Shown here one piece after another: positions 2 to 64,000 of a stretch of DNA of 64,000 bases. Each line of letters begins with the position of its first letter. Position 1 is the stretch's first letter. This stretch comes from Blasia pusilla (lineage: Eukaryota): positions 18,600,001 to 18,664,000 of the forward strand of contig CM114271.1 in NCBI GenBank assembly GCA_050084515.1. The letters run 5' to 3'. The notes under the pieces were generated by a model. It worked only from the letters and a program-made list of their open reading frames with translations, was not told the DNA's origin and ran no database searches. A program made the position numbers and the translations under genes.

Positions 2-1201
2 AGAAGGGATTCTGGTGGGCTATACAATTCCCCTCGGAGGAGCCGAGCCCTGCAGGATGTGGACAAGGGATCTCCACCTAAGTCCATAAGTAGCCCCCCT
101 CATAAATTCAAACGCTTAAAGAAGGATACTGAGCCTGTCTCAGTCTCCTCCGAAAAACAGACTCCTGAGGTCAGATCGCCTAAGAGGCCCAATAAATCTG
201 TTGAAGAAGGCAATGGCTTAGCAGTGACAGAGTCTGCAGGCATCAAATCAAAGGAGAAGTTACATCAATCAATTGAAAAACTTGGAAGACCTGATGGGAA
301 AGAGAAAGTTTTGAACAAGCAGCCTGTCAATGTCTCTGTCGAATCAGTTAAAGATCAAGATTTGTCAACGAAACTGTGGGGGACCGAGAGGTTGGAGAAA
401 CTTTTTGAGAGAAAGGCATCAAAAAATAATGAAAAACCTACAGGTGAAACTTTGCCTCTAACGCAGGCTGTAGGTTGTTATGAAGAGCCAGATGTTGCAG
501 TGGCTAAGGAGCCACAAGGTAAGGAGAAGGTTGAGAGAGTCTTTGAAAGAAGACCTTCAAAGAGTAAAAACATAGCTCACAAAGACAAAGGAGCTCAGCC
601 TCATATTGTTAAAGACAGTCAAGAGTTTCAGAAGTCAGTTGTCAGACAGTCATATGACATGGTGGATGGAGGGAAAGTTTTTAGGCGCAGACGAAACATG
701 AGTCCAGAGAAGGACTCTGCACATCAAGGAGCATGTGGGATATCACTTGAAGGAAAGGTCAAGGGTTATGGAGATAAAGAGGCAAATGCAGAAACCAAGA
801 AGAATGTGGTAAGCGGTGCAGATAACAAGCATGAACTAATTCCTTCAGAACGGGTAGGTCAAATAAAAGAAAAGACAGAAGTTGCTGACTGTGAGAAGTT
901 TCTTAGTCGTAAACTCACAACTGAGGTCAATCTGAATGGTAAGAGAAAGAAAATCCGGAGCCGTACAGAAACTGATAACAATTCACGGACTCTGGAGAGC
1001 ATGGAGACTGGAGCTGAGTTAGATATTGAGGAGGGAGATGAGGAGGAGGAATTGAACAGCGAAGGACAGTTAAAGCAAAAGGCAAGAAAAGTTTCTGCTT
1101 GTACAGGAAATATGGTGCCTAGTCTAGTTGTGAGTAGCATGGAAAGTTCAAGCCCACGATGTGTCAACAGCGTATGGAACCCACAGAGTTCAATTCCCCA
1201 G
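2..1201 (+). CDS. MOM1: MOM1-like exon, charged low-complexity N-terminal region, open from window start
   Basis: Stop-free frame from position 2; donor CAG|GTTTGA at 1202; phase 0 matches acceptor at 1354. Confidence 0.7.
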
Positions 1202-29440: not shown

Positions 29441-30805
29441 TGTGACGTCTTTTAGGATAGATCGATGAGATCTAGTAGAGCGCCTTCGTGAGTAGTGAAG
29501 GACAGGCTCAGTAGGTGGAGGATGACCTGTTGAGACCCCGGGAAACCTCAAAGAGCAGGTTTCCCCTTCGTTTGGCTCATTTGGAGCCATATTGTGAAAC
29601 TTATAATTTTAGGTAAATACGATTTTGAGTATATGATCGACTTTTTATTTTTTGTAAGTGGCCCTTGATCTCCTACATCAGGTCAAGAGCCAAGGAGGTG
29701 ACTTGGGAAAATAGATTACCATGGAGAGAGCTTGGGAGAGGGAAGGGGTATACCTCAAGGAGAGAGAGTTTGAGAGCTCATTCTCTCTTTGTTGAACCTC
29801 TTGGCATGAGGCGGCGGAGCTATGGTCCCTTGCCTTGTGAGTGTAATCCAAGCCTCTCATTAGGAGAGTGGGTTTGGTTTGACATGAGAGAGAGTGCACA
29901 ACTTTGAGAGCTATGGTGTGAGATGGTGTAGAGAGAGATTGGATCTTACTTTACAAAGAGAGAATGAGAGAATGAGAGAGCTTAATGGGGGAGCTCGCTA
30001 GTCACTCGCTGCTTTTGCAGGTTAGGGACAGTGTTCCCCGTTCAACGGCGCATGGGAGTGCTCACTGGAGCAATGGCTGCTTTGATTGTTCTTTGCATTT
30101 GTCGATTTTTCGTGTGGAAGAGTGGCACGCGGAAGCGCTGCCCAATTTCTAATAGGGATTGATTATAGGGGCGGGTTGCCCCATGCCAAAGCTCTCAAGA
30201 GCACCATGTAACTTGCTGATTTGAATTTTTACAGGTCTACATTTTCGTTGGGAGAAATCACCGCGGAAGCGCTGCCAAATTTTGTGTAGGAGAAAGAGAC
30301 ATTAGGCTTTACGATAGTCCCCATCAGTTTTTATTGGAATGTCCAAATCCAAATATTTTTTAAATTTTATCGTAGATCGTGAAGTTGTGCATGTTGTGCA
30401 AAAAATGGTGTACAATTTGGAGTTGCGAGTAAAAAGTTATGGCCAATCTTGCAAAATTTCCATTGCTAGGCAATCTTTAGGGTTAAATTGTTAAAACCCT
30501 AAACCAGCCGCCACGCGGGCGGCGGCCGTCACCGTCATAGTTATCGTCACCGGTCAACGGTCACCATCAATGATCAACCATCTGCGTCAACGGTCTGTCG
30601 TCACCATCAACGGTCAATCGTCACCGTCAACGGTTCACCGTCCACCGTCGGCCGTTGCGGTTGCCCAACGTTGCTCAGAGTTGCATTTGGTCGTTGTCCA
30701 CCCTTTGGTTGCCATTGCCGCCATTACGAAGTGGAGGGTCTTCCACGACCACCGTTGATTCTCTGACTTGCGCCGCCACCACGTACTTTGGTTTGCTGCC
30801 ATCAT
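29441..30805 (+). mobile_element. Truncated left end (A repeat plus 5' leader) of the DNMT-Gypsy family
   Basis: Starts TGTGACGTC; colinear with 45794-47140 and 57614-58925. Confidence 0.9.
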
Positions 30806-44600: not shown

Positions 44601-45793
44601 TTTCTCTTCTAGGTATTCATCAAGTAAAGTGACGTTGTGGGAAAATTCAAGAAATTGGTATCTAATTTTTTACTGACCTTCAAGTACGGGAGTGGATGAT
44701 TGAATGATTTTTTTAATCAAGACACACATAATGACTATTTCCCTATGACTTTGAGGTAAAAGATCCCTTATCCTCTTATCAATAAGATTCCGCTCCAAAG
44801 TGCCGTGCACTTGCTTCTCTTGAACGTCAATCTCTACTGTTGCGGAAACGTACCTTCAATAGATGATGCTCTCACTAATGTATGGCCGAGTTGATAACTC
44901 GGAGAGTTGGAAGGCTGATTCACTCATACCATACTAATGTGAGTGTGTTTGGATGCAGAACATCAAGCTCAACGTTCCTACTTCCCTACTTCCCAATACG
45001 GGTAAGTTTACCAAGACTTGGGACAAACTTTCTCAATATTTTAGGCACTTAAAACGACATTCACATGCCTAGCAGTACCAATTTTCCAATGGACCTAATG
45101 TAAACCCCTAACCGAGACCCACGTAAATGAGCCGCGGGTTGGAATCCAAGAGTGACCTCCGAAATCCACTTTATTGGACTTGGTTTGGGTTTCGAATCCC
45201 AACGCTAAACTCCCTATCTATTCTGTGTCCTTGGTTCTCCCTAGGACAGCCCAAAGTGGAGTTTGAGTCTTAACATTCTTGGAGACCTTCTCCCTTACTA
45301 GTAACTCAAGGGTTCTCTCGCCCCCCTAATCTTTGGGAAAAGACTCTCGGGTCCCTCTTTTTGGACGGATGGTTCTCAATGAGCCTCAACAACTCATATA
45401 AGGTTCACATTTCCATCCATGTTATGTGTGTAAAAGATCTTGAGGGTAGATTGTAAAATTAGTTGCTAAAAAAGCCGTGAATCCTCGAAAGTCCTCTCCA
45501 ATTATTCAAATAATTGGTCGCGAGCATAAACATCTAAAACTCAAGCTTGTCTTCAATGTGACTCTCCGAATCCTTTTCATCTAAATCAATCTTAATAAGA
45601 TCCACGTTTGGACCAAGTAGGTTAGAATCTTTATTATCAAGGACTTGTGAGTAATTTGAGTTACTTAACACCTCATCTAAATCATGACTATCTCCATAAA
45701 GTAATTTGGTTTCAAGGACCCCTTGGATAGCCATGAGAACTTCCTACCTTTCTATGATCTTTAATATTTTCTTTTTGATTTTTAGAGTGAGGT

Positions 45794-46309
45794 TGTCACG
45801 TCTTTTAGGATAAATCGGTGAGATCTAGTAGAGCGCCTTTGTGAGTAGTGGAGGATAGGCTCAATAAGTCAAGGATGACATGTTGAGGCCCCGGGAAACT
45901 TCAGAGCGTAGGTTTCCCCTTCGTTTCGGCTCATTTGGAGCCATATTGAAAAACTTACTATTTTAGGTAAGTAGCATTTTGAGTATATGATAAACTTTCT
46001 ATTTTTGTTAAGTGGCCCTTGACCTCATACACTAAGGCAAGAGCCAAGGAGGTGACTTGGGAGCATAGGTTACCATGGAGAGAGCTTGGGAGAGGGGAGG
46101 GGTATACCTCAAGGAGAGAGAGTTTGAGAGCTCATTCTCTCTTTGTTGAACCTCTTGGCATGAGGTGGCGGAGCTATGGTCTTGCTTGCCTTGAATGTGT
46201 AACCCAAGCCTCTCATTAGGAGAATGGGTTTGGTTTGACATTGAAAGAGACATGTGAGAGTGCACATATTTGAGTGCTATGGTGTTGAGAGAGATTGGAT
46301 CTTATTTTA
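45794..46309 (+). repeat. Repeat A1 (516 bp)
   Basis: Direct repeat of 55490-56005; homology stops at GATCTTATTTTA. Confidence 0.93.
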
Positions 46310-47898
46310 CAAAGAGAGAATGAGTGAGTGAGAGAGCTTCATGGGGGAGTTTGCTGGTTGCGCGATGTTTGGTGCAGGTTTGAGGACCGTGTTTCCCGCT
46401 TCATGGCTCATGGGGGTGCTCACCGGAGCAAGAGCCGTCCGAGTTTGATGTTTTGCTTTGCTGATTTTTTGTTCGGGAGAATGGCACGCGGAAGCGCTAC
46501 CCAATTTTCAATAGGAATTGAGTATGGGGGCGGATTTCTCCATGCGATGTTCTCGAAAGCACCATGTAGCTTTTTGATTTGTGTTCTCACAGGTTTTGTA
46601 TTTTCATAGGGAGAAATCAGTACGGACGCGCTGCCAAAATTTGTGTAGGAGAAAGAGACATTGGGCTTTACAATAGTCCCCCGTCAATTTCTACTGGAAT
46701 GTCTGATTCAAAATATTTTTTTATATTGTCATATATCATGAAGTTGTGCACGCTATGCAATAAATGATACGCAATTTGGAGTTGTGAGCAAAAAGTTATG
46801 GTCAATCTTACAAGACTGCTATTGCTAGGCGATTTTTAGGGTTAAATTGTTCAAACCCTAAACCAACCGCCGCGCCGGCGGCATCGTTGCCGTCATAGCT
46901 ACCATCAATGGTCCACCGTCACCATCAATGGTCAACCGTCACCATCAATGGTCAACCGTCAATGGTCCACCATCCACCGTTGGCCGTTGTCGCCGCCTAG
47001 TGCTGTTCAGAGCCGCTTTTGGCCGTTTTTCACCCTTTGGTTGCCATTGCCGCCATTACGGAGTGGAGAGTCTTCCACGATCACTGTTGATTCTCTGACT
47101 TGCGCCGCCACCACATACTTTGGTTTGGCCGCCACCGTCATCGTAGTTTTGTCATCAACCAATGATGGCAGGTGACCTCGGGTTATGGTGTTTGAGTTTT
47201 CATTTCATGTTGTTATGTTGTGATTGGTAGCCACTCGACGAAGATCGAGTACCATGCCGTGACACCCGTAGCGCAACACGCCGCCGATTGCCGCGTTGTG
47301 CCGCTTGTGGCCGCACCGCATTGTCTCAATCACAGAGCCGCTCCTTCACTAAGAAGCAAAGCGCGTGAATTGCTGATTGAGGAGGGTATGCCGCCAAGTC
47401 CATCGTTTTGTAGTCGTTTAGTCTTTGCCTTTGTCGCGAATTCGAACCTGCACTGCACATCAATGGGGTTTGAGTAGCGTCAATACGAGAGGAGTACGAT
47501 TTGCTAATTGGAAAAGTTGTCTTCACGACCAAGTTGGGGTTGAGATTTGCAAATGTCGAGGAGCGACATCAACATTATTGTCACGTTACCCATTCTAGTC
47601 TCTTACCTTGCACGTGTGAGAGATTTTTGGATATTGGGAACTTATTTGGGATATTGGGTTTCGTGTTGATGCTGAGAGCATCAATGATGTATGGGTTTAG
47701 GGGACATAGACTTGTGTGAGATGTCCAAAGTTAAGGATGGTTTGTCAATGAGACGATAGATCAGTTGATTTTTCGGACCGCGCCGCTTGTTGCCGCATAG
47801 CACACGTCTTAGTGAGAGAGTGTAGATTGAGTGCCGCATGTTTAGTTTTAGTGATTGAGGGATTACTTGCGAGATTGAGAGTGATCGTGTGAGAGGGC

Positions 47899-50400
47899 AT
47901 GAGGGCCATCACTGCGTCCTTTCGGGATTTTGAGAGGCAAGGTAGTGGACCTGAGAGTAGCTCTAGAGGGTTTACCCGGAGTGGTGCGAGGTTTCGAGGA
48001 TCTCCACATGAGGGACCACCTTCTACGTCATCTTCAGACAAGGAGGAGCATGTAGAGGAGTTGAGTAGTGCTTTGCCACTCACATTGAGTAGTCCTATTG
48101 CTTGGGCGTACGAGATGGGTGATCGGGGGAGAGGACAGCGTAGGTTCTCAGGTGCAGTAGGCATGATAGAGTTGCACGACTTCATCGCCGAGTTTAGGAG
48201 TTGGTGCAACTCACAGCGGGCTAGGAACTCTAGAGAGCTCAATCCGTTTACAGCATAGAATGGTATGTTCCAACAGTTAGAGGGGGCACCCATGGACAAT
48301 TACCATGAGTTCTCCCATAGGTATGCCTAGGAGATTGAGGCATGGCGACTCTACTATGACCCACACTATGTGTCATAGACGGAGCCGTTCCCAAATGAGG
48401 AGGAGTCATGAGAGGCTACTTCCTCTTCCACTAGTGATGTTTTAGGAGGGATCACTCGCACTGGAGCAGTTGCACCGTCTAGTCGGTTTTGTCCCAGGTT
48501 CAACCCCGTGGTTGAGTTCTTCATTGAGTTGAGGGCGAGCTACCAAGTGGTACGGACAGAGAAGTTGCGGAGCATCCATGACTTCCAGACGCGCCCGTGT
48601 GAGAGTTTGGGTGAGGCTTACACTCGCTTGCGCCGGTTGATCAACGTCACTCAGGGGGTGACAGAGGCTCAAGCTATCCAGTCATGGTACGCGATGTTGG
48701 ACCAGACCCTACGAGCATGGGTGCGGAAGAGGGTGCTTCTTATGAACACCTCCCCTACGTTGAGAGATGTTTTTAGGACCGCCGAGAACATTGAGTGCAA
48801 CATGATGGAGGAGATCGTAGCCACCATGGGTTCTAGGCGAGAGCAGTCACGATTTTCTACACCACCAATGCAGTAATGTGGACTCCGAGATAGGTCGACT
48901 ATGGCACCACGAGCTTAGGAAGGATACCAGAAGGCTGTGCCACAAAGACCTACGCCTTCATATGCGGCTCAATAATAGCCGCCTATGATTACTTGTTGGT
49001 CATGTGGTGGAGCCCATCATCAGTGTGATTGCACTTGTCAGGGTCATGGACGTGTGCCTTAACATGGAGGAGGACATGGTGCTGCACCAAGAGGTTATTA
49101 GTGTTACTATTGTCAGAGGTATGGTCACACACGCGCTCGGTGTTTCAGTTTACACCCTGAGTTACGTCCAGACCGAGGGCTAGAGAGGGCACGAGAGCAA
49201 GTAGCCGGTCCGGGTGGGCTAGAGATCGTGCACCTGGTGGTCGTATTGGGGGACGAGGAGCAAGAGTTGCCCAATAGGGTGGTGGAGTTGCCCGTGGAGG
49301 AGGTAGAGTCCCACTAGCTAGACGCATCGAGGGAGATGCCAAGGGTGAAGTAGGGATGGCTGCTTAGATACAAGAGCAGATTGCCGCTATAGCATTGAGG
49401 TTACGCGATGCCAGATCCATGGCATCGAGATCATATGGAGCAGCCAGAGATATGGAGTATCCTTGTTGGATGTGTGGGGTTGCCCACATGGAGGCTTCCG
49501 CAGTTCTGACGCGTGGAGCAGCCATAGAGTTGGCTCCACATCGAGGGGAAGCTAGGAAATAGACCAATCTCCCCAATCTTTCACGTTGTCCAAGGTGATG
49601 AGGACCCCATCGATGGGTCTTGATCAGAGTTCCCGGAGAGTTGGTGATGTTATTGGTGTGCAAGCACGAAGGGCAATGGGAGAAATGAGTGCAACGATTC
49701 CTATTGCTGATGCTAAGGAGGAGCATGTGTCGAGTACGATGTTGGGGGCGGCCACGATGGTGTACCGTACTCCGTTATTTTCTTCTTTTGATGTTATGAC
49801 ATTGGGAGGTATGCTACGCTATGCTATGTGAGCGAGGAGTTGGAGTTCCTGCATCACCTTCAGAGGTGATTGCAGAGGAGCTGATGGACCTGCCCTTGGA
49901 GCTGATGCTCGGGCCGTCCACGTCATATTCATGGCAGGCTGCGGTTGCTAGGATGGCGGAGATGCCCACTAGACCCGCGATAGAGCATGCCATGGCTTCT
50001 CCTAGTGTTGTGTTGCTAGATAATCTGGGAGAGGTCTTCCAGTTGGTGAGTCCAAAAGGTAGAGCTTTTAGTCCGCAGTGCGTCTTGTTGGATTCAAGAG
50101 CGCAACCCCTAATGTTGGGGAAAGCGTCATTCAGAGGATTGGGCTTGACAAGAGCCGATGTGGAGCATTGTCCATTCCGGATACAGACATCCTTGGATGG
50201 AACGAGTACCATATAATTTATCACCCGACATGAGGTTGTAGTGAGGATTTTCCCGGGACTTCCTATAGATGAGTCTGTGGTGCGAGCCAAGGCGATAGTG
50301 ACTAATGCAGAGTCCTACGACGTCTTGGTTGGTGGAGTAGTGTTATACCCGATGGGGTTTTCCCTGGATTACTGGGAGGAGTCAGCGTCCTATAGACCAA
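47899..50400 (+). pseudogene. gag (capsid-like plus two CCHC zinc knuckles) and aspartic protease, stop-riddled
   Basis: FQTRPCESLGEAYTRL (gag-like); CWSCGGAHHQCDC at ~48994; CYYCQRYGHTRARC at ~49102; VLLDSRAQ (LLDSGAQ in the minus copy at ~62550). Confidence 0.8.
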
Positions 50401-50803
50401 GATGGCATCCAAGTGATGGGCGCCTTAGCTCATTACCCATTCGATTCACAGCTGCAATGATCGAGCGACGGCCAAGAGAGATGGCGACCTTAGCAGCATT
50501 TAGCAATGCCATCACTTGGCCTAGTGATTTGATTAGGGAAATGTCCATACAGAGGATACTCCCATTTGTGACATTTCTATGCAAAGGAGTGTCATGGTAG
50601 CTGCATCAGTCTGTGGAGGAGACGTGCCGCTTTGGGGTTTGCCTGAGGAGCTTCGACGCTTAGCCATTGAGCATGAGCAGACCGCATGGAGCGAGACGTT
50701 TGCACCAAAGTGTGACAGGTCAAAGGAACCCCAAGTAAGCAGGAGTGCTACTATAACCCCTTTGGACACCACCCTGATTGTATGGTGGATCCCAGAGAAG
50801 GAT

Positions 50804-51750
50804 ATTCGGGTGTTGGATCTCTTTGGAGGGATCAGCACTGGGTTAGTTGTTATTTTGCAAGCTGGAGTGCGCGTGCAAGAGTACCTATATGTGGAGATTG
50901 ATGATGTTGCGAGGCGCGCTTCACTTCACCATGTGGCGCAGTTACGCCTCCGTTTTCCCGACTTGTTGTCTGCATCTGCCATTCTGGGTTACCAGAGTTC
51001 TCTACCGAGGGACATTTCATTGTTGGGGACGCATGACTTGGAGCGGGTAGGGACCATAGACTTGATCATTGTTGGTTGGCCATGTGAGGGCCAGTCAAGT
51101 GTTGGACTGGATAGTGGATTAGCTTACTCTCGGTCCATGTTATTTTGGGAGATGATGCGGATCTTGCAACACTTGCAGGAGCATCAATCTTGTCCTCCAA
51201 CATACATTGTAGAGAATGTACAGATTTTGGGCGATTCGAGGTCCCGTGTGGTGACAAGTGCACATCAAGTGAGCGCATGGATTGGCCTTGAAGTTTTGTT
51301 GGATGCGGCAAGTATGGATTCACGAGCACATCGCCCGCGTCTTTGGTGGACCAACTTGGTACCACACAAGGTATTGCACAGGGCATATGCGAGAGTGGAG
51401 CGCCCCTCGGATTTTTTGGTGGATTCTATATTGGATCCGGGCCGTCAATCACAGGCAGTGAGGCTAGATGATTGACCGCCGTTGACTATGGTCAACATGA
51501 TTTGTAGGCCACGGGAAGCGTGTCCTACATTGGTGAGTTCTCCCGCTTCCTATGCATTCAAGGACGCCGGACCTCGCTTGGTTTGGGATGACCAAGTACA
51601 GAGGTTGGTGGAGCCCAACGCCGATGAGCGAGAGCAAGCGATGGGATTCCCCACAGGAGTGACGGCAGTACCGCCACTATCAGAGGCATGACGACATCAT
51701 GTCTTAGGTCAGGCAATGGAGCTGAATTGCTTGACATGGATTTTTAGCTT
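50804..51750 (+). pseudogene. C5-cytosine DNA methyltransferase domain (DNMT3-like) within pol; single frame with two internal TGA codons
   Basis: Motif I IRVLDLFGGISTG; IV IDLIIVGWPCEG; VI YIVENV; VIII AHRPRLWWTNL; IX/X EREQAMGFPTGVT...HVLGQAM. Confidence 0.92.
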
Positions 51751-52081
51751 AGGAGTAGTTGAGCGACGTCGTTTGAGTATGCGAGAGATCACAATTGTTG
51801 CATTGGTGAGCCCCATGCCTATTGAGATGGTTAGGGCATTGGTTGGGGGACAGACCCAAGGAGATCGACACACCAGGGATGATCGGGAGAGACACCCTTG
51901 GACTTCTTGGGATATTTTGCAGGTATGCCAGAAGATGATAGCCATAGCATCGAGCATGGTTCCGGGTTTTGCACGTGGAGATGATAGTTCTATTGTCTGA
52001 GACGGGGTTGCACCATAGCAACCACTGACATCCGCGTCGGAGAGTCCTACCGTAGTCACGATGGAGACTTCAGAGCCAGAT

Positions 52082-55000
52082 TGAGTGCTTGGGTCCTACG
52101 ATATACCAAGGGAGCCTTGGTGTGCAACAAACAAAGGTAGAGGCTATTTCACGCATTCCACGCCCTATAGATGTGAGTCGAGTTCGTGCATTCATGGGAT
52201 TGGCAAACTTCTATCGACGATACGTCAAGGGTTTCAGTTTGATTTCAAAGCCGCTAACCTTGTTGACCAAGGTGGATCAAGAGTGGCATAGGGGGGATGA
52301 GCAGGAGAGAGCATTTCATATGCTCAAGGATAGATTGACGTCCGTGCACATATTGAGGAGACCGATCAGGGGGCATCCTTTCCAGTTGCATACCAATTGG
52401 AGCATGTTGGGGCTTGGAGCCATGCTCATCCAACATGACGATGATGGTAGAGAGTTCATGGTGGCTTATGCTAGTCGCTTGAACAATGCTACAGATTTCG
52501 CGACCCTCATAACCAAACAAGCGCCAAGCGGAACATCCGAACTCTAGCGAGCTCACGCTAGGATGGTTTGCGCTTTGGGAGTTAAGGAAACACAAGGGCA
52601 AGATGCGAGCGAGGTGAGCGTTTCGAGTGTTTCGTGTGTTGTGGTCATGACCAGGAAATCATAACCAAATGCGGTACTCAGACTTGAGAGAAGTCAAGTC
52701 TTGGAGGAGACGCGACCAAGGGGTGAAAACTAGACTTGAGACGTTGCAGCACTTGAGAGTTTCCGACTGTACTTTTGACCATAACTTTGACTCCCAAGAA
52801 GCGTTTGGGACAAATAAGATAGCATTGGAAAGCTTATGTCAAGTCAATTCTAGCGCACCAAAGACCTTTGCAAACACTTGTGCAAAGGATGAGATATGGG
52901 CCAAAACCAAACGTAAGAGGAGTCGGGTTGAGGGCCAAAAAGAGGGGCCCGGTTGGTCTTTCCCAAAGGTAGGGGGACCCCGGAGTTTCCTAAAAGTACA
53001 AGTAAGGGGGAAGGTCTCCAAGAGTTCTTGGGACTCGAAGCCCACTTTGGGCGCCGCGAGGCGATCCAAGGGCACGGAACGGATCATGAGTTTGGTGGTG
53101 GGCTTTAAAACCCAAACCAAGTTCAATAGAGGGATTTCGGAGATCCCTATTGGATTCCAACTTGCGACTCATATTATTGAGTCTCGGTTAGGGGCTCATG
53201 CCAAGTTTGTTGGACAATTGGGACCGCTAGGCGCGCAAATGCCGTTTCAGGTGCCTAGACTAACCAGAAAGTTTGTCCCAAGTCTCTGAAGGCTTGCCCG
53301 TGTAGGGAACCTAGGAATGAGGGAAGGTTGAGCTTGATAAGATGCCCAGTTGAGGATTCGGTGGGTTGAAAGACCGCTTGATCCAAAGCCAGACTAACGT
53401 GAGTGCATTTGGGTGCAGGTTGGCGATGAGAGCGTGTCCTACTAAACGTACGCTTCTGCAACACTAAGATTGACGTTCAAGGAGAGTAGGCGCACGACAA
53501 TAGAGGCGAATTATAACTCGTATGAGGGTGAGTGCTTGGCTGCAGTGTGGGCTATTGCACATTTCACATGTTATCTATTTGGAAATCCCTTTACCATCAT
53601 TACTGATTATCAGCCACTTAAGTGGTTGATGGCATCCGACAAGCTAAGAGGAAAGCTTGCAAGGTGGGCTCTTTTGTTGCAGGAGTATGACTTCCAAGTG
53701 GTACATCGACCTGGGAGGCTCAACCAAGATGCAAATGGTTTGAGCTGTAACCCATGCCCGAGTCAGCAAGATACGACTAGAGCTCGTTGGCATGGTGAGA
53801 GTGATGAGGAGTTGGTGCCAAGATGGCATACGTTAGCCTATTTGGGCTTGTTGGCTATGGAGAGCCAGATTTCTAGGACTTTGATGGTGAGGTCTAATGG
53901 AGAGTCCTTAGATACTGAGGCCGGTGAGAAGACAACAGGTGGCCAAGACATTCACGGTGATGGAGTGGTCTTGGAGTACCTGCATACTCGCAGCGTCGCG
54001 AGCACAGTCGGTGCTAGAGAGTGGGATCAGATCCTACAATGAGCCAAACGGTTTCGGTGGGAGGGCACATATATGTTGTGAGTGTGGGAGGATGGTAGAG
54101 TGGATGTAGTGTCTCATCCTTCATAGAGAGCACGTTTGGTGCGTCATTCCCACGAGGAGTTTGGTCATTTTGGAGTGAAACGGACGTACAGCTTGCTCCA
54201 GATTCAGTATTGGTGGCGAGGCGTACAGACTGACGTTTAGCAATTTGTTGCCAGATGCATGGTGTGTGATCAAGTCCGAGTATCATTCAATGCTCCGACT
54301 CCATAGTTGCATCCACTTCCAATCATGGGTTTAGGTTATAGATGGAGTTTGGATTTTGCAGGAACTTTGCTTTTGAAGGAGCGTCATAGTCCTTATGTGT
54401 TGATGATGGTCCTGCACTTATCGAAGTGGATAGAATTGGTTGCATTGTCTGACAAAGCAAGTGAGGGAGTAGCGTATGCCTTCCTAGATTGAGTGTTGAG
54501 TCATTACTGCGCACCAATGGAGGTGTTGACAGACAAGGGTACAGAGTTCTACAGGGAGTTTTAGGCCTTCTTTATCAGGCACTTATCGACCACCGGACTA
54601 CTTTCCGAGATCATCCTGAGGAGGATGGACTAGCGGAGCGGGTTGTGCAGACAATGAAGAGAGGACCACGCAAGTATGGCTTGCAGAGAGGTCACCTAGG
54701 AGATTGGGACCTTCAGAGAGTGATGTCCATGGCGTTTGAGAACTTGGCGATTGCGTAACATCGGGATACCTTGAGATATGCAACTTTTCAGGAAGATGGT
54801 TATTGACCTACTATCCAGAGGTTTCATCATGAGGACTATGTCTACTTGCAGCAGATGGCATCCACGAGGTTGGATGTGACTACAAGGTGCATCATATTGA
54901 GAGTGCGTGAGGTTTTGCCATCCAGTGTTCTCTTATTGGAAGGACACGATGGTATGGTTTGGAAGGACCATGTGCGTAATTATGCGCCATGTCATCTTCC

Positions 55001-55196
55001 AAACATTGACGATGTATTTGATCCAAGCTTAGCAATAGTTCTTGCAGGCTTGCGGTCTATGTTGTGTGGTTCTGCCCGTGGTGCAGCCACTATTATAGTC
55101 TGTGATGAGTGTTCGAAAGAATGGCATATGGCATATTTGATGCCACCTCTCACTAGGGTTCCTCAGGGAAGATGGATGTATCCCACATATACATAA
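52082..55196 (+). pseudogene. RT C-terminal tail, RNase H (interrupted), Gypsy integrase (HHCC plus core) and C-terminal PHD finger
   Basis: VRAFMGLANFYRRYVKGFS; VAYASR..EANYNSYEGECLAAVWA; ARWALLLQEYDF; HEEFGHFGVKRTY...CMVC; WSLDFAG; GLAERVVQTMK; LCGSARGAATIIVCDECSKEWH...VPQGRW. Confidence 0.9.
52496..53499 (+). mobile_element. 1004-bp solo-LTR-like insertion splitting RNase H
   Basis: T(T)TCGCGACC...GCGCACGACA ends; flanks ACAGA/ATAGA; removing it restores ASRLNNATEANY. Confidence 0.85.
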
Positions 55197-55375
55197 AGAA
55201 GGTAGTTCTACATTCTGACTTGTGTCTGTGAAATGGATGACAAAAAGGTGACTAACAATGGGGCCACATGAGCACCCGACCTTCTTGCTCTTAGTGTCTC
55301 AGAGATGTATGTCATGGTAAGTAGGGATAGATGGCTATGTAGAGTTAAAGGGACCTAACCACCAGCTAGGGGGGA

Positions 55376-55487
55376 AATTGGAGATATTTTGGTACTTCTT
55401 GTCTCGTTGTTTGGATGCCATGAGTTAGCATGGGATTGTGCGTGCTTGTGTGTGTGTCTAGTGACAGCGATGTGTATGCGCACGATA
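55376..55487 (+). repeat. Repeat X1 (112 bp), preceded by polypurine tract AGGGGGGAAA (55368-55377)
   Basis: AATTGGAGATATTTTGG...GCGCACGATA; direct repeat of 56005-56133. Confidence 0.92.
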
Positions 55488-55489
55488 AT

Positions 55490-56005
55490 TGTCACATCTT
55501 TTAGGCTACATTAGTGAGATCTAGTAGAGTGCCTTTGTGAGTAGTGGATGACATGTTGAGTAGGTCGAGGATGCCATGCTGAGGCCCCAGAAAACCTCAG
55601 AGAGCAGTTTTTCCCTTCATTTTGTCTCATTTGGAGCCATATTGAGAAACTTGCTAATTTAGGTAAGCACCCTTTTGAATATATGATCAACTTTCTATTT
55701 TTGTTAAGTGACCCTTGACCTCCTACATCAGGGCAAGAGCCAAGGAGGTGACTTGAAAGCATAGGTTACCATGGAGAGAGCTTGGGAGAGGGGAGGGATA
55801 TACCTCAAGGAGAGACAGCCTGAGAGCTCATTCTCTTTTTGTTGAACCTCTTGGCATGAGGCGGCGGAGTTATGGTCTTACTTGCCTTGTGTGTGTAATC
55901 CAAGCCTCTCATTAGGAGAGTGGGTTTGGTTTGATATAGAGAGAGACATGTGAGAGTGCACACATTTGAGAGCTATGGTGTTGAGAGAGATTGGATCTTA
56001 TTTTA
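55490..56005 (+). repeat. Repeat A2 (516 bp)
   Basis: Direct repeat of 45794-46309, sandwiched between X1 and X2. Confidence 0.93.
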
Positions 56006-56133
56006 ATTGGAGATATTTTGGTATTTCTTGTCTCATTGTTTGGATGCCATGAGTTAGCATGGGATTGTGCTTGTTTGTGTGTGTGTTTGGTGACAGCGAT
56101 GTATGTTGTGTAGCGATGTGTATGCGCACGACA
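56005..56133 (+). repeat. Repeat X2 (129 bp), right terminus of the element
   Basis: AATTGGAGATATTTTGG...GCGCACGACA, followed by the TSD AGGT. Confidence 0.92.
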
Positions 56134-57613
56134 AGGTTTAAATCTTTTACACATGAAAATTACTACCTCTTTGATGTTGCTACAACCTTGAGAGTTCACA
56201 AGAAGGATTTGCAAGCCTAGCTAAGGGCACATCTTAATCGAATATTCCTATGATCTCTAGTATAGCTCACACCCATATTGTTACCATAAGAAATCCTATA
56301 TCGAGGATTAGAGTCCAAATTAGAGGTTCACACTATCTGTGGCAGAAATTTAAAGAGTGGAGATCATGAATGTAGGACCACTAACCCTACATATTTTTAT
56401 AACCTGAAAGGCATGCTATACTACATGCTTACATTTGTGTCATGCATCAACTTTGTAAAACATTAGTCTAGTGTGTTGTAGAAGATGGTGTTCAGCATGG
56501 CATACTCTCATTACTAATCTACATCCAAATACACTCACATTATCCACAATTTGGATCGACCAACCTTCCGTCTCCCAAATTTAGGTCTTGGATAAATCCT
56601 CAAGCTCAACAAATCTAGACGGGATGCAATACCAACCTAACCCCACATTCACAAAGAGATGCAAATCATTCAACACTTGAGACAAACTTCCTTAATATTC
56701 TAGGAACATGAAACGAAGCCAACGCACGTGGAAGCCCCAATTGACCCATGGACATAAAACAAGTCTCCAATCGAAATTCCGTACATGAACCTCAGATAAT
56801 GGTGGTAAAAAATTAGGGTCCAAAAGTGGACAATTTTAGCTTGACTTGGTATGAAAACCCACAATGCAAACCTCTCAATCCCTCGCTCAATCCATCCCGT
56901 GCTTTTAGTTCAACCCCCATGGTTCTTAAGATGGGGTTGAGATTCCAAAATCCATTGGAGGCCATCCCCTTTATGTACAATTCTAGAGAAATCCAACCGC
57001 CCCCCCCTTCCAGAAATTCTTCTTGGACCACACCTTGTGTCCCTTAACCCAAACTAGACCTTTCATGTATTAGAACCAACTTCTCATAAGCGTTCGAACG
57101 TCGTTTTACTCATCCCAAACGCATCTTGGATCTAGCCGCTATGACCTGGAAAGAAGAGAACTCCCAAATGCTAGATCAAATTGATAAACTTTAGGTCTCA
57201 ATCCAAAATAATGCTCCTTGATAACTTGTGAGATTAGGACCAACAATCTAGGAAAAGACAAAGGGTCGCGTGAGGGATAGTATCATCCAAACTCAAAATG
57301 AACCTTACTTGCAAACCCAATCAACAATTCTAAATATTGCATTGTATCCCTTATATTCAAGAAGACTTGTAATAAAGTCCATATTGATGCTTTGCTTAGA
57401 GACAAGCTTATTTCTAACAGTTCTACCAGTGACATTTTAGAACTTGCCTCTTGCTTAATGTCGCAATATGTTAAAGAATATGATTATTTTGGGTGGTGGT
57501 TATCGATAAGGAATGTAGATATTTTATCTTGGAGATTCTGTCTATATCTTCATCATACAGTACCGATAAAATTGGGTGTGGCGGTAGGACGCAACTTTTT
57601 GTATGAACGAGAT

Positions 57614-60600
57614 TGTCACGACTCTTGGGATAGATCGGTGGGATCTAGCAGAGCGTTTGCACGAGTAGTGGAGGATAGGCCTAGGAGGTTGAGGATGACA
57701 TGTTGAAGCCCCGAGATACCTGAGAGAGCATGTTTCCCCTTCGTTTCGGCTCATTTGGAGCCAAATAGAGAAACTTACTATTTCGGGTAAGTTTCCATGT
57801 TGGAGATAGTTGACTTTACACTCTAGGAAGTGGCACTTGACCCGATACAACACGTCAAGAGCCAAGGAGGTGACCTGCGAGCATAGGTTACCGTTGAGAG
57901 GGCTTGGGAGAGGGAAGGGGGTATACCTCTAAGAGAGAGAGCTTGAGAGCTCATTCTCTCTTTGTTGAACCTCTTGGCATAAGGCGGCGGAGCTATGGTG
58001 AATTGCCTTGTGAGTGTAATCCAAGCCTCTCATTAGGAGAGTGGGTTTGGTTTGACATGAGAGAGAGTGCACACCTTTGAGAGCTATGGTGTGAGATGGT
58101 GTAGAGAGAGATTGGATCTTACTTTACAAAGAGAGAATGAGAGAGTAAGAGAGCTTCATGGGGGAGCTCGCTGGTCACTCACTATTTCCACAAGTTGAAG
58201 ACCCTGTTCCCCGTTCAATGGCTCATGCGAGTGCTCACCAGAGCAAGGGCTGCTTTGATTCTTCTTTGCATTTGCCGATTTTTCGTGTGGAAGAGTGGCG
58301 CGCGGAAGCGTTGCCCAATTTCGGATAGGGATTGATTATGGGGGCGAGTTTCCCAATGCCGGTGCTCTCGAGAGCACCATGTAGTTTGCTGATTTGTATT
58401 TTTATAGGTTTTATATTTTCGTTGGGAGAGATCAGCACGGAAGTGCTGCCAAATTTTGTGTAGGAGAAAGAGACATTGGGCTTTACAACAGTCCTTGTCA
58501 ATTTTTATTGGAATTTCCGATTCTAAATATTTTTTGATGCTATTGTAGATCATAAAGTTGTACACGTTTTGCAATAAACAATGCATAATTTGGAGTTGCG
58601 AGCCAAAATTTATGATCAATCTTGCAAAACTTCCATTGCTAGGCGATTTTTAAGGGTAAATTGTTCAGACCCTAAACCAGCCGCCACACCGGCAGCGGCC
58701 TTCGCCATCATAGTCACCATCAACGGTACGCCGTCGATGGTCAACCGTCACTCTCACATGACAGCCATCACCATCAATGGTCAACTGTAACCGTCAACAG
58801 TCCACCGTCCGTTGTCCACCTTTAGTTGCCATTGCCGCCATTACGGAGTGGAGGGTCTTCCACGACGTTCGTTGATTCTCTAACTTGCGTCGCCACCACA
58901 TACTTTGTTTTGGCCGCCACTGTCATTGCAATTTCATCATCAACCAATAATGGCAAATGACCTCTATTCATGGTGTTTGAGTTTTGATTTCATGCTGCTA
59001 TGTTGTGATTAGTAGCCGCTCGACGACGATCGAGTACCGTGCCATGACACCCGTAGTCGCAACGCGCCGCCAATTGTTGCGTCGTGCCACTCGTGGCCAC
59101 ACCACACTGTCTTGATCATGGAACCTCTCCTTCACTAAAGAGCAGAGCATGTGAATTGCTGATTAAGGAGGGTATGCAGCCGAATGCCGCACCCCATTCC
59201 CGAGTGTCGTGTTGTTTGTAGCCGTTCCGTGCCGCCAGTGCCGCACCCGAGCGCTCGACCTGCACCGCACATCGAGGAGGTTGAGCAATATTAGTACCAG
59301 AGGAGTACGACTTGCTGATTGGAGTAGTTGTCTTCACGATCAAGTTGGGGTTGAGATTTTCTGTTGCTGAGGAGCGACATCGATATGTGTTCAGGTTATC
59401 CATTCTGGTCCTTTGCCCTCCACATGTGAGGAATTCTGGGATTTGGGTAGTTTATTTGGGGATATTGGGTTGTATGGATGTTGAGAGCATCATTCATGTA
59501 TGTGGTTTAAAGGACATAGACGTGTGTGGGATGTCTAGAGTTGAGGGTAGGTTTTCGATGAGATGATAGCCTGGTCGATTTGCCGCACCACGCCGCGTGT
59601 TGCCGCACGTTACACGTCTTGAGGAGGGAGAGTGTAGATCGAGTGCCACATGTTTGGGATGAGTGATTGAGGGATTACTTGCAAGGTTGAGAGTGATCAT
59701 GTGAGAGGGACACGAGAGTCATCACGGCGTCCGTTTGGGACTTTGAGAGGCGAGGAGATGAACCCGAGAGTAACTCTAGAGGTTTTACGCGGAGAGGCAC
59801 GAGGTTCCGAGGGTGTCCACGTGAGGGACCACCTCGATCTCCTTCTGTGTCATCGTCAGAGGAGGGAGAGGGTGTAAAGGAGTTTTTGAGCACATCGCCA
59901 TACATTGTGAGTGGTCCTACCAGTTGGGCGTACGAGATGGACAACCGGGATAGAGGACCGCGCAAGTTTACAAGTGCAGTAGGCACGATTGAGTTGCACG
60001 ATTTCATAGCAGAGTTTAGGAGTTGGTGCGACTCCCAACGGACCAGGAACTCTAGAGAGTTCAACCCGTTTACAGCATGGAACGGAATGTTCCAGCATTT
60101 AGAGGGGGCGCCCATGGACGATTACCATGAGTTCTCTCAGAAATATGCACGTGAGATCGAGGCGTGGAGGCTCTACTATGACCCACATTATGTCACATGG
60201 ACGGAGCCGTTCCTAGATGAGGAGGAGGAGTCAGGAGAGGCTACTTCCTTGATTGGCATATGAGCACGTGCAGACCACGTGGAGCGAGGCATTTGCACTA
60301 GAGCGTGATGGGTCTGAGAAACCTGAGGTAGGAGGGAGTGCTACGATGACACCCTTGGATACCACACCTGTTGTGTGGTGTATCCCGGAGGAGGGTATTT
60401 GAGTGTTAGATCTCTTTGGAGGGATTAGCACCGGATTAGTTGTTGTTTTGCAGGCAAGAGTGCGAGTGCAGCAGTACCTATATGTGGAGAGTAATGATGT
60501 TGTGAGGCGCGTCTCACTACGACATGTGGTGCAGTTATGCCTACGTTTTCCCGACTTATTTTCTGCGTCCGCGATACAGGGGTACCAGAGTTCCCTACCG

Positions 60601-60730
60601 AGGGATATTTCGTTGTTGGGGGCGCAAGACTTAGAGCGACTAGGGACCATTGATTTGGTCATTGTCGGTTGCACATGTGAGGGCACGTCAAGTGCTGGAC
60701 GAGGTTGCGGGTTGGCTAACACTCGGTCCA
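57614..60730 (+). mobile_element. Second, internally deleted copy of the DNMT-Gypsy family (A, leader, 5' gag, jump to DNMT N-half)
   Basis: Starts TGTCACGAC; colinear with 45794-48425; at ~60250 it jumps to the homologue of ~50660; VLDLFGGISTG...IDLVIVGCTCEG. Confidence 0.9.
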
Positions 60731-63662
60731 CGCTCGATGTTGTAGCTATCATCTCTTGGCGTACGTACAAAACGTCCCAAGAAGTTCAAGGATGTCTCTC
60801 TCAATCTCCCCTGGTGTGTCAATCTCCTCGGGTCTTGATCCCACCCACTACCTCCACCGTCTCGGTAGGCATGGGGCTCACCAACGCAACCACTGTGATC
60901 TGTCGCGATCTCATCCGACGCTGCTCAACCACTCCCAAGCTGAAGATCCATGTCTAGCAGTTCAGGTCCATTGCCTGATCCAAGACATGGCGTCATGATG
61001 CCTCAAATACTAACAGTACTATCGTCACTCATGTGGGAAATCCCATCGCCCACTCTCTCTTGTTGGCGTTGGGCTCCACCAACCTCTAAACCTGGTCATC
61101 CCAAACCAAGCCAGGATCGGCCTCCTTGTATGCATAGGAAGTGGGAAAACTCACTTGGGAAACCGCCTACTGCCAACCCTATTAAACCCTAACAAGTGGT
61201 TGATCATCGTGCCTCACCGCTTTTGTGAGTTTAACTGGATCGATCCAAAATGGAATCCACTAACAAATGGGAGGGCGCTCCACTCTCGCATACGCCCTCC
61301 GTAACATCACATGGGGCACCAAGTTGGTCCACTGTAGATGCGGGAGATGGGCTCTAGAACCTACACTCGCCGCATCCAAGAACACTGTTGGGCTGATCCA
61401 GGCACACATCTGATGAGCACTCGTCACCACCAGTGACCTGGAGTCTCCTAAGATCGGCACATTCTCCAGAATGTAGGCTGGAGAACGAGACTGGTGCTCC
61501 TCCAACTACCATAAGACCCTGAACATCTCCCAAAACAACCTAGACCAAGTGTCAGCCAACCCGCAGCCTCGTCCAACACTCGATTGGCCCTCACATGGCC
61601 AACCGGCAATGACAAAATCAATAGTCCCTACCCGCTCTAAGTCTTGCGCCCCGAGCAACGAAATATCCCTCGGTAGGGAACTCTGGTACTCCTATACCGC
61701 GGACGCGGACAATAAGTCGGGAAAACATAGGCGTAATTGCGCCACATGTTGTAGTGAGACGCGCCTCGCAACATCATCACTCTCCACATACAGGTACTGA
61801 TGTACTCGCACTCCTGCCTCCAAAACATGAGCTAACCCGGTGCTTATCCCTCCAAAGAGATTTAACACCACACAATGGACAAGGGTGTCATCGTAGCACT
61901 CCTTGCTACCTCGGGTTTCTCAGACCCATCACGCTCCGCTGCAAATGCCTTGCTCACGCAGTGTGCACGTGCTCATCTGCCAATCATCGAGGCTCCTCGG
62001 TCGAGCCCCATAGCGGCACCTCTCCTCCACAGAATGATGCGGCTACCATAAAACTCCTCTCCATAGAAATGTCAAGAACGGGGTTATCCTCTGCATGGAC
62101 ATGTCCCTCAATCAAATCACTAGGCCAAGTGATGGCACTGCTAAATGCTACTAAGGTCACCATCTCTCCTGGCCGTTGCTTGATCACTGCACCTGTGAAT
62201 CAAATGGGTAGTGAGCTAAGGTGCCCATCACCTGACTACCATCCTGGTTTGTAGGACGCTCACTCCTCCCAGTAATCCAGGGAAAACCCCATCGGGTATA
62301 ACATTGCTCTACCAACCAAGACATCGTAGGACTCTACATCACTCACTATCGCCTTGGCTCGTGCCACGGACTCATCTGTAAGATGTCCCGGGCGAATCCT
62401 CACCACGACCTCATGTCGGGTGATAAACTGTGTGGTACTCGCTCCACCCAAGGATGTCTGTATCCGGAATGGACAACGCTCTACATCGGCTCTTGTCAAG
62501 CCCAATCCTCTTAATGACACTTTCCCCAACATCAGGGGTTGCGCTCCTGAATCCAACAAGATGCGTTGCGGACTAAAAGCTCTACCTTTGGGACTCACCA
62601 ACTCAAAGACCGCTCCTCGGTTATCTAGCAACACAATACCATAAGAAGCCATGGCAAACTCTATCGCGGGTCTAGCAGGCATCTCTGCCATCCTAGCAAC
62701 CGCAGCCTACCATGAATCTAACATGGACGGCCCGAGCATCCGCTCCAAGGGCAGGTCCATCACCTCCTCTGCAATCACCTCTGAACGTGATGCAGGAACT
62801 CCAACTCCGCGCTCACATAGTGAAGCAGCTAGCCGAAAAGCCTCAGCATGCGCACGCCCCAACGTCATAACATCAAAAGCAAAAAATAAAGGAGTGCAAT
62901 ACACAACGGTGGCCACCCCCAACAACGTGCTTGACACATGCCCCTCCTGAGCATCAACAATAGGAGTCATCGTACTCGCTTCTCCCATCGCCCTCCGTGC
63001 CTGCACACCAACAACATCACCAACTCTAGAGGAACTTTGATGAGGACCCATCGATGGGGTCCTCATCGCTTCGGACAACGTGAAAGACTGAAGAAGCCTA
63101 GTCTATTTTCTGGTTTCCCCTCGCTGTGGATCCAACTCTAAGGCTGCTCCACGTGTCACAACTACGGCGGCCTCCATCTAGGAAACCCCACACATCCAAC
63201 CACGATCCTCCAAATCTTAGGCTGCTCCATATGATGTCGATGGCATCGATCCAACATCAGGTAACCTCAATGCCATACCGGAAATCTGCTCCTATAGCTG
63301 TTGTATCTGAGCAGCCATCCCAACCTCACGCTTGGTGTCTCCCTCGGCGCGTCTAGGTGGTGGTACTCTACCTCCTCCACGGGTAGCTCCACCACTATGT
63401 CGGATAACTCGAGCTCCTTGTCCCCCAACGGGACTACCTGGTGCACGATCTCTAGGCCCACTCGGACCAGCTGCTCACTGTGGTGCCCTCTCTGGCCCTC
63501 GGTTCGGACGTAACTCAAGATGTAAACTAAAACACCTAGCACGTGTATGACCATACGTCTGACTATAGTCACACACATAACCTCCTAGTGCAACACCATC
63601 TCCTCCTCCATGTTGAGGCACACGTCCATGACCGTGACGAGTGCAATCGCGTTGATGATGGA
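60730..63662 (-). mobile_element. Inverted third copy: gag knuckles, protease, DNMT
   Basis: Minus strand CDYSQTYGHTRARC, RILLDSGAQ, IAGWPCEGQS, YILENV, AHLPHLQWTNL; homologous to ~49015-51960. Confidence 0.9.
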
Positions 63663-64000
63663 TGTCGTGCGAATCCACATCATCATACAACATACATCGC
63701 TGACATACCATACTCACATACATACATAACATAGACGAGAGCATCCACAAACACAAGTGTACCACAACTGAAATCCGTGGAAGACCTATTGTCATAAAAC
63801 ACGAATAGAATCACATACAATCGAGCCAAACCCAATCCACGATGGGAGAATCCAAGTCGAAGCTTGCGGGAACCACCATAGCCAAGAGCTCTACTCACTA
63901 CCAAGGCTAACTCCCAACGCAGCAGGCTCAACTCAAAGAACTAACTGTTCTTTGAGTGCACTCCACACTATATCCTCCAACTTAAGAGCGGGCCCTACTA
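63663..64000 (-). mobile_element. Right terminus (X-like) of a related element, nested in gag of the inverted copy and running off-window
   Basis: Minus strand ends CAGCGATGTATGTTGTATGATGATGTGGATTCGCACGACA, matching the X2 end CAGCGATGTATGTTGTGTAGCGATGTGTATGCGCACGACA. Confidence 0.75.

Follow-up and report, generated by a model that had tools for sequence, protein, structure and literature searches.

A Gypsy-DNMT3 retrotransposon with DIRS-like split repeats in Blasia pusilla and a proposed origin of its layout from self-primed, end-joined cDNA

Split direct repeats in the order A1-body-B1-A2-B2, whose internal junction is equivalent to both ends joined, occur in the DIRS, Ngaro, and PAT-like retroelements. 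Retroviruses use the tips of their long terminal repeats (LTRs) for integration, the junction of the two-LTR circle being a dead end, and the circles of insertion sequences (ISs) such as IS30 and IS911 contain junctions of abutted ends. Among elements with Gypsy domains, KnitGypsy-Dnmt3 of Klebsormidium nitens was stated to have repeats "the same as that of a DIRS retrotransposon" (de Mendoza et al., 2018, PMC5890265, Fig. 4c legend). In the excerpts of this paper considered here, the dinoflagellate DIRS layout is written A-coding region-B-A-B and the K. nitens elements are drawn with full split repeats, and the main-text portions among them give no primer site, end motifs, duplication length, mechanism, or copies of the form A-body-X. 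The name Gypsy-DNMT3 is applied to the streptophyte lineage in a preprint, which only names it (10.64898/2026.05.21.726589). Furthermore, self-priming of reverse transcription has been described for Tf1 and Tj1 (PMC4600332, in part) and predicted for the Tcn1 clade of mosses and club mosses (PMC6317226, in part). Here, a stretch of 64,000 nucleotides from Blasia pusilla (GCA_050084515.1, contig CM114271.1, positions 18,600,001 to 18,664,000 of the forward strand; hereafter, the window) was analyzed, which contains at 45794-56133 a decayed Gypsy-type element with a single repeat A1 at its left end and the block X1-A2-X2 at its right end. The original prediction took this architecture to be undescribed; the layout has been in print since 2018, although only as a remark, and the claim of novelty falls. 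The window thus adds liverwort-type members to the lineage and not a new class. As far as the literature search reaches (the supplements of PMC5890265 lay outside it), neither a description of liverwort members nor an explanation of DIRS-like repeats on an element with a DDE integrase is on record. Five features appear to be new: a site for self-priming, integrase ends that are displaced, a joint of U5/U3 type that varies, target duplications of 4 bp, and a sister form devoid of terminal repeats.

Repeats were detected by comparing 45500-56400 with the whole window, and ends were read directly from the sequence. The self-comparison aligned A1 (45793-46309) with A2 (55489-56005) at 88.8% identity over 517 bp and X1 (55376-55473) with X2 (56005-56102) at 93.9% identity over 98 bp, and the likeness of the X tails continues on direct reading to 55487 and 56133, respectively. 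By the bounds originally proposed, X2 comprises 129 bases and X1 112, because the tail of X2 holds approximately 17 extra bases. The element begins with TGTCACG, ends with CACGACA, and is flanked on both sides by AGGT (45790-45793 and 56134-56137). A1 stands alone at the left and the full paired LTRs of Ty3/Gypsy elements are absent; the order of repeats is the A-coding-B-A-B order of the Gypsy-DNMT3 lineage, which is also that of the split repeats of DIRS, Ngaro, and PAT. Two more copies of A were found at 29441-30795 (81.6%) and 57609-60249 (77.9%); unrelated flanks precede them, and both open with the same TG (at 29441 and 57614) and pass directly into the same leader. A G-rich purine tract lies immediately 5′ of X1. 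Self-comparison and direct reading hence bear out the original prediction as to the repeats, the end motifs, the AGGT flanks, the two additional copies with their passage from A to leader, the polypurine tract, and the lack of a TGG-type site after A1.

The distribution of this layout was examined in two sets of data. Raw genomic reads, Logan contigs, and two RNA runs carrying the same species label were mapped on 45500-56400 at 80% likeness. In addition, metagenome contigs were scanned with an alignment of six relatives, which yielded 80 loci, and after self-comparisons A, X, and leader probes from three families (the window family and two metagenome families, i and ii) were mapped onto all of them; insertion sites were counted after merging loci with the same flank, and loci without the relevant end or matching no probe family were left unclassified. 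The window family is highly repeated in the genomic reads. At least 735 genomic reads, in seven joints among those listed, pass from the X end (56131-56134) to the A start (45792-45796), and a further 3988 loose ends behind 56133/56134 have a consensus resembling the A start. The agreement of this consensus is 0.39 in DNA and 0.78-0.81 in RNA, as expected if the X end precedes A inside elements and random flank at their ends. The junction of A end and X start is covered by 1974 reads and the region of A end and leader by 1344, and no joint of the X end with the leader was found among the joints listed (398 further joints lie beyond these).

In the metagenome loci, the 3′ end consists of polypurine tract-X-NN-A-X at 13 of the 28 distinct insertion sites, and L037, where the contig stops after X-NN-A, is a fourteenth candidate. 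At the other 15 of the 28 sites (L004, L007, L008, L020, L024/L043, L027, L029, L030, L045, L047/L048, L068/L069, L073/L077, L075, L079, and L080), X after the polypurine tract is followed by flank, and approximately half of the related insertions thus lack A2-X2 altogether. These A-body-X elements have no terminal repeat of any kind, yet they bear the same end motifs, and perfect 4-bp duplications surround three of the five complete ones. They are taken as real because four of the sites were recovered in two assemblies each. All 17 of the 5′ ends (nine of family i, five of family ii, and three of the window family) read flank, A, leader; X before or after A1, the order A-X-A-leader, and a conventional A+X LTR were each found at 0 of the 17. 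The A-body-X-A-X layout is thus a lineage trait, and the repeat pattern is not a product of chance, the same layout and end motifs recurring in unrelated contigs and both junction types being abundant in the reads. The window itself holds a single complete copy, which is degenerate, as might be the case after a one-off rearrangement or a local duplication of a conventional LTR element; this highly improbable alternative is refuted by the same layout at 13 distinct sites of two other families, by the abundance of both junctions, and by the lack of conventional 5′ ends. The suggestion that the architecture belongs to a family therefore stands, and the conventional LTRs at most copies that would have spoken against it were looked for and not encountered.

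The body of the element was annotated by a Pfam scan of 28 open reading frames (ORFs) on both strands and by tblastn with the Marchantia proteins P0005 and P0006 and with L049, a related element with split repeats. The ORF listing shows a body full of stop codons. By homology, pol comprises in order a protease (PR)-like region, a Dnmt3-like methyltransferase, a lost reverse transcriptase (RT), RNase H of Gypsy type (RT_RNaseH, RT_RNaseH_2), H2C2, and rve. The methyltransferase lies between the protease-like region and the RT and is, again by homology, contiguous with PR and RNase H; among solved structures, DNMT3A/3B/3C are the best matches of its counterpart in L049. The order PR-RT-RNase H-integrase of Ty3/Gypsy elements is complete, with RVT_1, in L049 and P0058, and the window copy shares with this group the DDE integrase remnant, the TG...CA ends, and a short target-site duplication. 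A PHD finger occupies the integrase C-terminus, where the chromodomain of the Tf1/sushi type was not found. The original prediction of a Gypsy-type element with a DDE integrase is borne out by the rve and H2C2 remnants at 53617-54713, both domains being intact in relatives; it had missed the methyltransferase within pol and the defective state of this copy.

The methyltransferase ORF matches liverwort proteins at 49-55% identity, namely of Calypogeia fissa and of Marchantia polymorpha, whose proteins are approximately 1200 residues in length and one of which bears RVT_1, RNase H, and DNA_methylase. A search with the RNase H ORF returned 64 longer proteins from Calypogeia, Riccia, Marchantia, metagenomes, and Klebsormidium nitens, and many of those from metagenomes bear rve, H2C2, and PHD. 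At the protein level, liverworts and K. nitens provide the closest relatives of the element. L049 encodes DNA_methylase, RVT_1, RNase H, H2C2, rve, and PHD, and KFL_009030040 of K. nitens has the order DNA_methylase, RVT_1, RNase H, H2C2, rve; in pairwise comparison with the window lineage, the latter is 38% identical over the methyltransferase and 47% over RNase H. KnitGypsy-Dnmt3 is similar to the window lineage in carrying a Dnmt3-type methyltransferase in a Gypsy pol upstream of the RT, a DDE integrase, and DIRS-like repeats; it differs in being an element of K. nitens, as opposed to the liverwort-type window copy and its nearest relatives, and the kinship is one of pairwise similarity only. 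The Gypsy-DNMT3 lineage encodes gag, PR, a Dnmt3-like methyltransferase, RT, RNase H, a DDE integrase, and a PHD finger, and the window element is an old, defective, non-autonomous copy of this lineage of Ty3/Gypsy.

The layout of repeats, taken by itself, would also fit an element of the tyrosine-recombinase type (DIRS, Ngaro, or PAT) or a chimera of such an element with Gypsy. No tyrosine recombinase, of PF00589 or another family, was detected by the Pfam scan in the 28 ORFs scanned on both strands, in L049, or in the precomputed domains of the 64 relatives, in agreement with the original prediction. The relatives instead bear rve and H2C2, and both the TG...CA ends and the duplications of 4 bp point to a DDE integrase, which renders this the most improbable of the alternatives considered.

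Ends of integrase type recur across the related loci. In the window, as at each of the 13 distinct split-repeat sites, X1 ends in ...ACGACA or a transition variant thereof, and exactly 2 nt separate this end from TGTCATG or TGTCACG; the terminal X has the same motif at its end, followed in the related loci by unrelated DNA. All 17 of the 5′ ends start with a TGTCA-like motif after an unrelated flank, save for single-base changes in two. Among the nine elements in which both ends are available, five have a perfect 4-bp duplication (AGGT in the window, GGTC in L049, CCAA in L027, TTTT in L029, and TGTG in L007), and in two more (L035 and L079) the flanks agree at three of four bases. Motifs and duplications of this kind are typical of integration by a DDE integrase. 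The spacer occurs as GC, AC, AT, or GT, variants that are read as deamination because all of them are transitions of GC within CAG/CTG; a spacer re-made in each cycle was considered and dropped, ordinary deamination at such a site sufficing as explanation. A target-derived X2, acquired by insertion beside a pre-existing X, was likewise dropped, as the duplications lie outside X2. As a separate observation, several loci (L024, L027, L029, L007, L045, and others) have a near full-length pol that is only 34-42% identical to the query and the same A/X end motifs, and judging by these alignments the end motifs seem more conserved than the proteins suggest.

Priming sites adjoin the same repeats. 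In all three copies of the window family, the start of the leader, CAAAGAGAGAATGAG (46310-46324), is perfectly complementary over 15 nt to 46131-46145 within A, and none of 200 shuffles matched the complementarity of the window copies. In family i, TCTAGAAAAACT is complementary to positions 164-175 of A over 10-12 nt in five of nine copies and decayed in the rest; in family ii, TCAAAGAACT is complementary to positions 166-175, over 10 nt in one of five copies and over 8 nt in another. In both metagenome families, in which A measures 291-340 nt, the complementary stretch lies at a corresponding position (164-170 nt into the repeat); in the window family it lies at position 337 of 516. The primer-site sequence differs among the three families with the pairing retained, that is, it covaries. 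RNA folds from the predicted start pair both stretches in both cases tried (z = -3.6 and -3.8). A run of G directly precedes X1 in 16 of the 16 split-repeat loci shown and in the window. From the sequence, the primer site and its complement constitute a signature of self-priming of the Tf1 type, with the RNA 5′ end being a predicted one. In the Tf1/sushi/Tcn1 group, the primer site immediately after the LTR has its complement within the LTR at the beginning of the transcript, as is predicted for the window lineage; members of that group carry ordinary paired LTRs and a chromodomain, whereas the window lineage carries split repeats, a PHD finger, and a methyltransferase. Priming by tRNA was dropped once the self-primer complementarity appeared: by eye, with no tRNA scan made, no tRNA primer site and no TGG-type site is seen beside A1. 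The original suggestion of replication "possibly without tRNA priming" holds to this extent, while the alternative to which it leads, self-priming as in Tf1, is one already known. The start of X or of A was also considered as a primer site and dropped, only 7 nt being conserved there.

The lineage is transcribed. RNA reads, which represent the family as a whole and not necessarily the window copy, are almost all of one orientation (depth 155 vs 15 and 212 vs 13 in the bin 54964-55327 of the two runs), and this bias means sense transcripts of the family, given the usual stranded library. The junction of X end and A start is spanned by 61 and 105 RNA reads in the two runs. A small pile-up, distinct from the predicted RNA start, lies at window position 55989, 17 nt before the A2 end, where 8 of the 38 fragments of one run begin.

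The joint of A2 with X2 is variable, in contrast with the polypurine-tract/X1 and A1/primer-site boundaries, which are sharp in the copies in which this joint varies. Within one family, a single base is missing or added at the joint and 0-4 nt are kept from the side of the polypurine tract; L015 has a filler of 17 nt, L019 has lost 9 nt, and in 815 of 1974 genomic reads of the window family one base is lacking exactly at the joint at 56005. In L023 (4695-4771) and L059 (2477-2553), A2 is only 77 bp in length and X2 begins at its second base, which looks like a resected junction of joined ends. In general, the A2/X2 joint looks like a cDNA junction produced by end joining and is similar, in position and variability, to the U5/U3 junction of retroviral circles.

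We propose the following route to the split layout. Minus-strand synthesis would be self-primed as in Tf1, the site at 46310-46324 pairing with the predicted RNA 5′ end at 46131-46145, and plus-strand synthesis would start at the G-rich polypurine tract adjoining X1. With a primer site right after A and a polypurine tract right before X, two-jump reverse transcription would therefore define an LTR of the composition X-NN-A. The cDNA tips expected from this, the X start and the A end, are not inverted repeats and lack TG...CA. The ends of integrase type (left TGTCA..., right ...ACGACA) would instead be abutted inside the LTR at the X/A boundary, in the near-palindrome ...ACA-GC-TGT..., and the ends made by RT and those made by integrase would be out of register. 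The two RT-made tips would be joined, A end to X start, to give the A2/X2 joint, and the integrase would open the joined cDNA where the two ends abut in the upstream LTR and would insert it with duplication of 4 bp, resulting in A1-body-X1-A2-X2. Three sources are conceivable for copies of the form A-body-X: a one-LTR circle, cutting at each of the two internal sites, and a deletion bounded by X1 and X2. The X/A junction, in which two ends of transposase type form a near-palindrome around a 2-bp spacer, would then be comparable to the circle junctions of IS30 and IS911, and the ends used by the window lineage would lie inside the LTR, unlike those of retroviruses, which use the LTR tips. We consider the chances of this explanation as a whole, from self-priming through displaced ends to joined cDNA, to be about even. 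Its more specific form, in which the attachment sites moved into U3, the RT-made LTR tips ceased to be substrates for the integrase, and the joined cDNA is opened at the internal pair in the manner of IS circle junctions, is put forward tentatively and appears somewhat less probable.

Several points weigh against this route. Cutting of the downstream end pair should yield A-X-A-body-X, and none of the 17 5′ ends examined has this form, ten of the elements having both ends in view. Random opening of a two-LTR circle at either junction is thereby rejected at face value and is retained only on the assumption of fast deletion; we suggest that long and closely spaced A repeats would rapidly reduce A-X-A-body-X to A-body-X, an explanation that is ad hoc. 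If A-body-X, with its 15 of 28 sites, were the main primary product, the split form would demand another origin; these sites come from metagenome assemblies, in which repeats may have collapsed. Two of the nine elements with both ends (L055 and L024) show no duplication, and the variation at the joint could be ordinary mutation in A/T-rich sequence. Furthermore, no pile-up of read starts at 46131, the predicted RNA start, is present in the read-start table, and the RNA start, the circular or end-joined cDNA, and the internal cutting are inferred.

An end regeneration of the DIRS kind would account for the layout in another manner: the transcript would lack the outer A1 and X2, the internal X1-A2 junction would be recopied for both termini, and a linear A...X cDNA would be inserted by the DDE integrase. 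PAT and Ngaro elements are indeed drawn with this layout, both end motifs meet at the internal junction across a spacer of 2 nt, RNA reads span this junction, and the corresponding internal region of DIRS-1 (ICR) is experimentally required (PMC7192593, in part). However, a primer site after A and a polypurine tract before X predict X-NN-A LTRs made by two-jump reverse transcription, the internal junction is itself not flanked by primer sites, and the A2/X2 joint sits exactly on the primer-defined boundaries and varies, unlike a templated copy. The window lineage also differs from PAT-like, Ngaro, and DIRS elements in having no recombinase and in having a DDE integrase, TG...CA ends, 4-bp duplications, and a polypurine tract and primer site at the borders of the repeats. 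DIRS-like regeneration is accordingly regarded as unlikely. The original proposal that the X1-A2 block templates both ends is upheld insofar as this block is the one intact RT-defined LTR; the priming looks like that of Tf1 in combination with a polypurine tract and not like that of DIRS.

Alternatively, A-body-X may be the normal integrated product, from a one-LTR circle or from cutting at both internal sites, and the split form a rarer by-product that is the sole replicable form. The number of A-body-X sites, the recovery of four of them in duplicate, and their perfect duplications are in favor of this possibility. A-body-X nevertheless lacks the 3′ copy of R that the first strand transfer needs, a deletion between the close X1 and X2 repeats would yield the same structure with the same duplication, and the K. 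nitens elements are drawn with full split repeats in the part of PMC5890265 considered; we hold this alternative to be doubtful, on a par with DIRS-like regeneration.

With regard to significance, the comparative anatomy turns the origin of the layout into a concrete and testable model. If the route through joined cDNA is true, the split repeats and the repeat-less A-body-X copies are direct footprints of integration from a circle-type junction, which bears on whether circle junctions serve as integration substrates and on the evolution of retroelement ends, and which suggests a route to DIRS-like layouts without a recombinase. Furthermore, a transcribed lineage with its own Dnmt3-like enzyme and PHD finger is relevant to the epigenetic conflict between transposons and hosts in early land plants.

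The coordinates of the features are compiled in Table 1. The insertion that interrupts RNase H is skipped by at least 670 genomic reads (four joints among those listed), and its single long ORF has no Pfam match. It represents another repeat family and is related at 74-76% to a stretch that lies shortly before the element in the opposite orientation (44801-45364).

Table 1. Features of the split-repeat element and its family copies in the window (positions are those of the window).
Feature	Position	Strand	Basis
Second family copy, truncated: A, primer-binding site, and leader only	29441..30795	+	Self-comparison, probes
Target-site duplication, left copy, AGGT	45790..45793	.	Matches 56134-56137
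A1, left repeat; TGTCACG start, integrase-type left end	45794..46309	+	88.8% to A2; same start at 29441 and 57614
TATA-like motif, 28 nt upstream of predicted RNA start	46103..46106	+	Sequence read; position relative to 46131 inferred
Predicted genomic RNA 5′ end, would-be self-primer CTCATTCTCTCTTTG	46131..46145	+	Perfect 15-nt complement of 46310-46324; pairs in RNA fold
Predicted primer-binding site of self-priming (Tf1) type, directly after A1	46310..46324	+	Complementarity, fold, covariation in other families
gag remnant, CCHC knuckle near 49102	48130..49218	+	tblastn, Marchantia P0005 and P0006; ORF text
Protease-like region	49818..50534	+	Homology only; no Pfam match
C5 cytosine DNA methyltransferase domain, Dnmt3-like, inside pol	50537..51949	+	PF00145, E 5.6e-10; liverwort proteins 49-55%
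Site of missing RT fingers and palm; ~359 residues of relative without counterpart	51742..52089	+	tblastn comparisons
RT thumb and first part of RNase H	52068..52496	+	PF17919/PF17917; tblastn
Insertion of ~1 kb confined to this copy; belongs to another repeat (see 44801-45364, other strand)	52493..53501	.	Skipping reads
Second part of RNase H	53470..54078	+	PF17917, E 4.8e-20; tblastn
Linker and integrase zinc-binding (H2C2) region	53617..54237	+	tblastn with H2C2-bearing ORF of L049
DDE integrase core remnant; ~63 residues lost at ~54712	54244..54713	+	Homology; loose read ends at 54712 and 54716
Integrase C-terminus with PHD finger	54711..55187	+	PF00628, E 3.6e-4 here, 2.9e-10 in L049
Polypurine tract AGGGGGGAAA adjoining X1	55368..55377	+	G-run adjoins X1 in 16/16 related split-repeat loci shown
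X1, first part of the proposed RT-defined LTR (start of U3); ends in decayed right-end motif	55376..55487	+	Self-comparison, direct reading
2-nt spacer, X end to A start	55488..55489	+	2 nt at 13/13 distinct related split-repeat sites
A2	55490..56005	+	Self-comparison
X2; CACGACA end, integrase-type right end	56006..56133	+	Self-comparison, direct reading
Target-site duplication, right copy, AGGT	56134..56137	.	Direct reading
Third family copy: A, primer-binding site, leader, gag start, then rearranged	57614..60249	+	Self-comparison, tblastn, probes

Further remnants were observed outside the element. On the minus strand of 60728-63955 lies an inverted and rearranged piece of a related element, which extends from the end of gag to the methyltransferase (63661-60728) and is directly preceded by an A/X unit of a second family (63955-63663), the X end adjoining gag sequence; the arrangement looks like a nested insertion, inside which the window ends. 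Among the metagenome loci, L014 contains a direct repeat of 3.5 kb (286-3803 and 9133-12650) with 99.9% identity, and L071 and L072 have repeats of 141-169 bp at their contig ends, all of which may be tandem elements, circular records, or assembly effects. Far from the element, at 3895-3993 of the window, a short match to the integrase tail of L049 (48% over 33 residues) resembles a PHD finger and could represent either a further remnant of the lineage or a PHD exon of the host.

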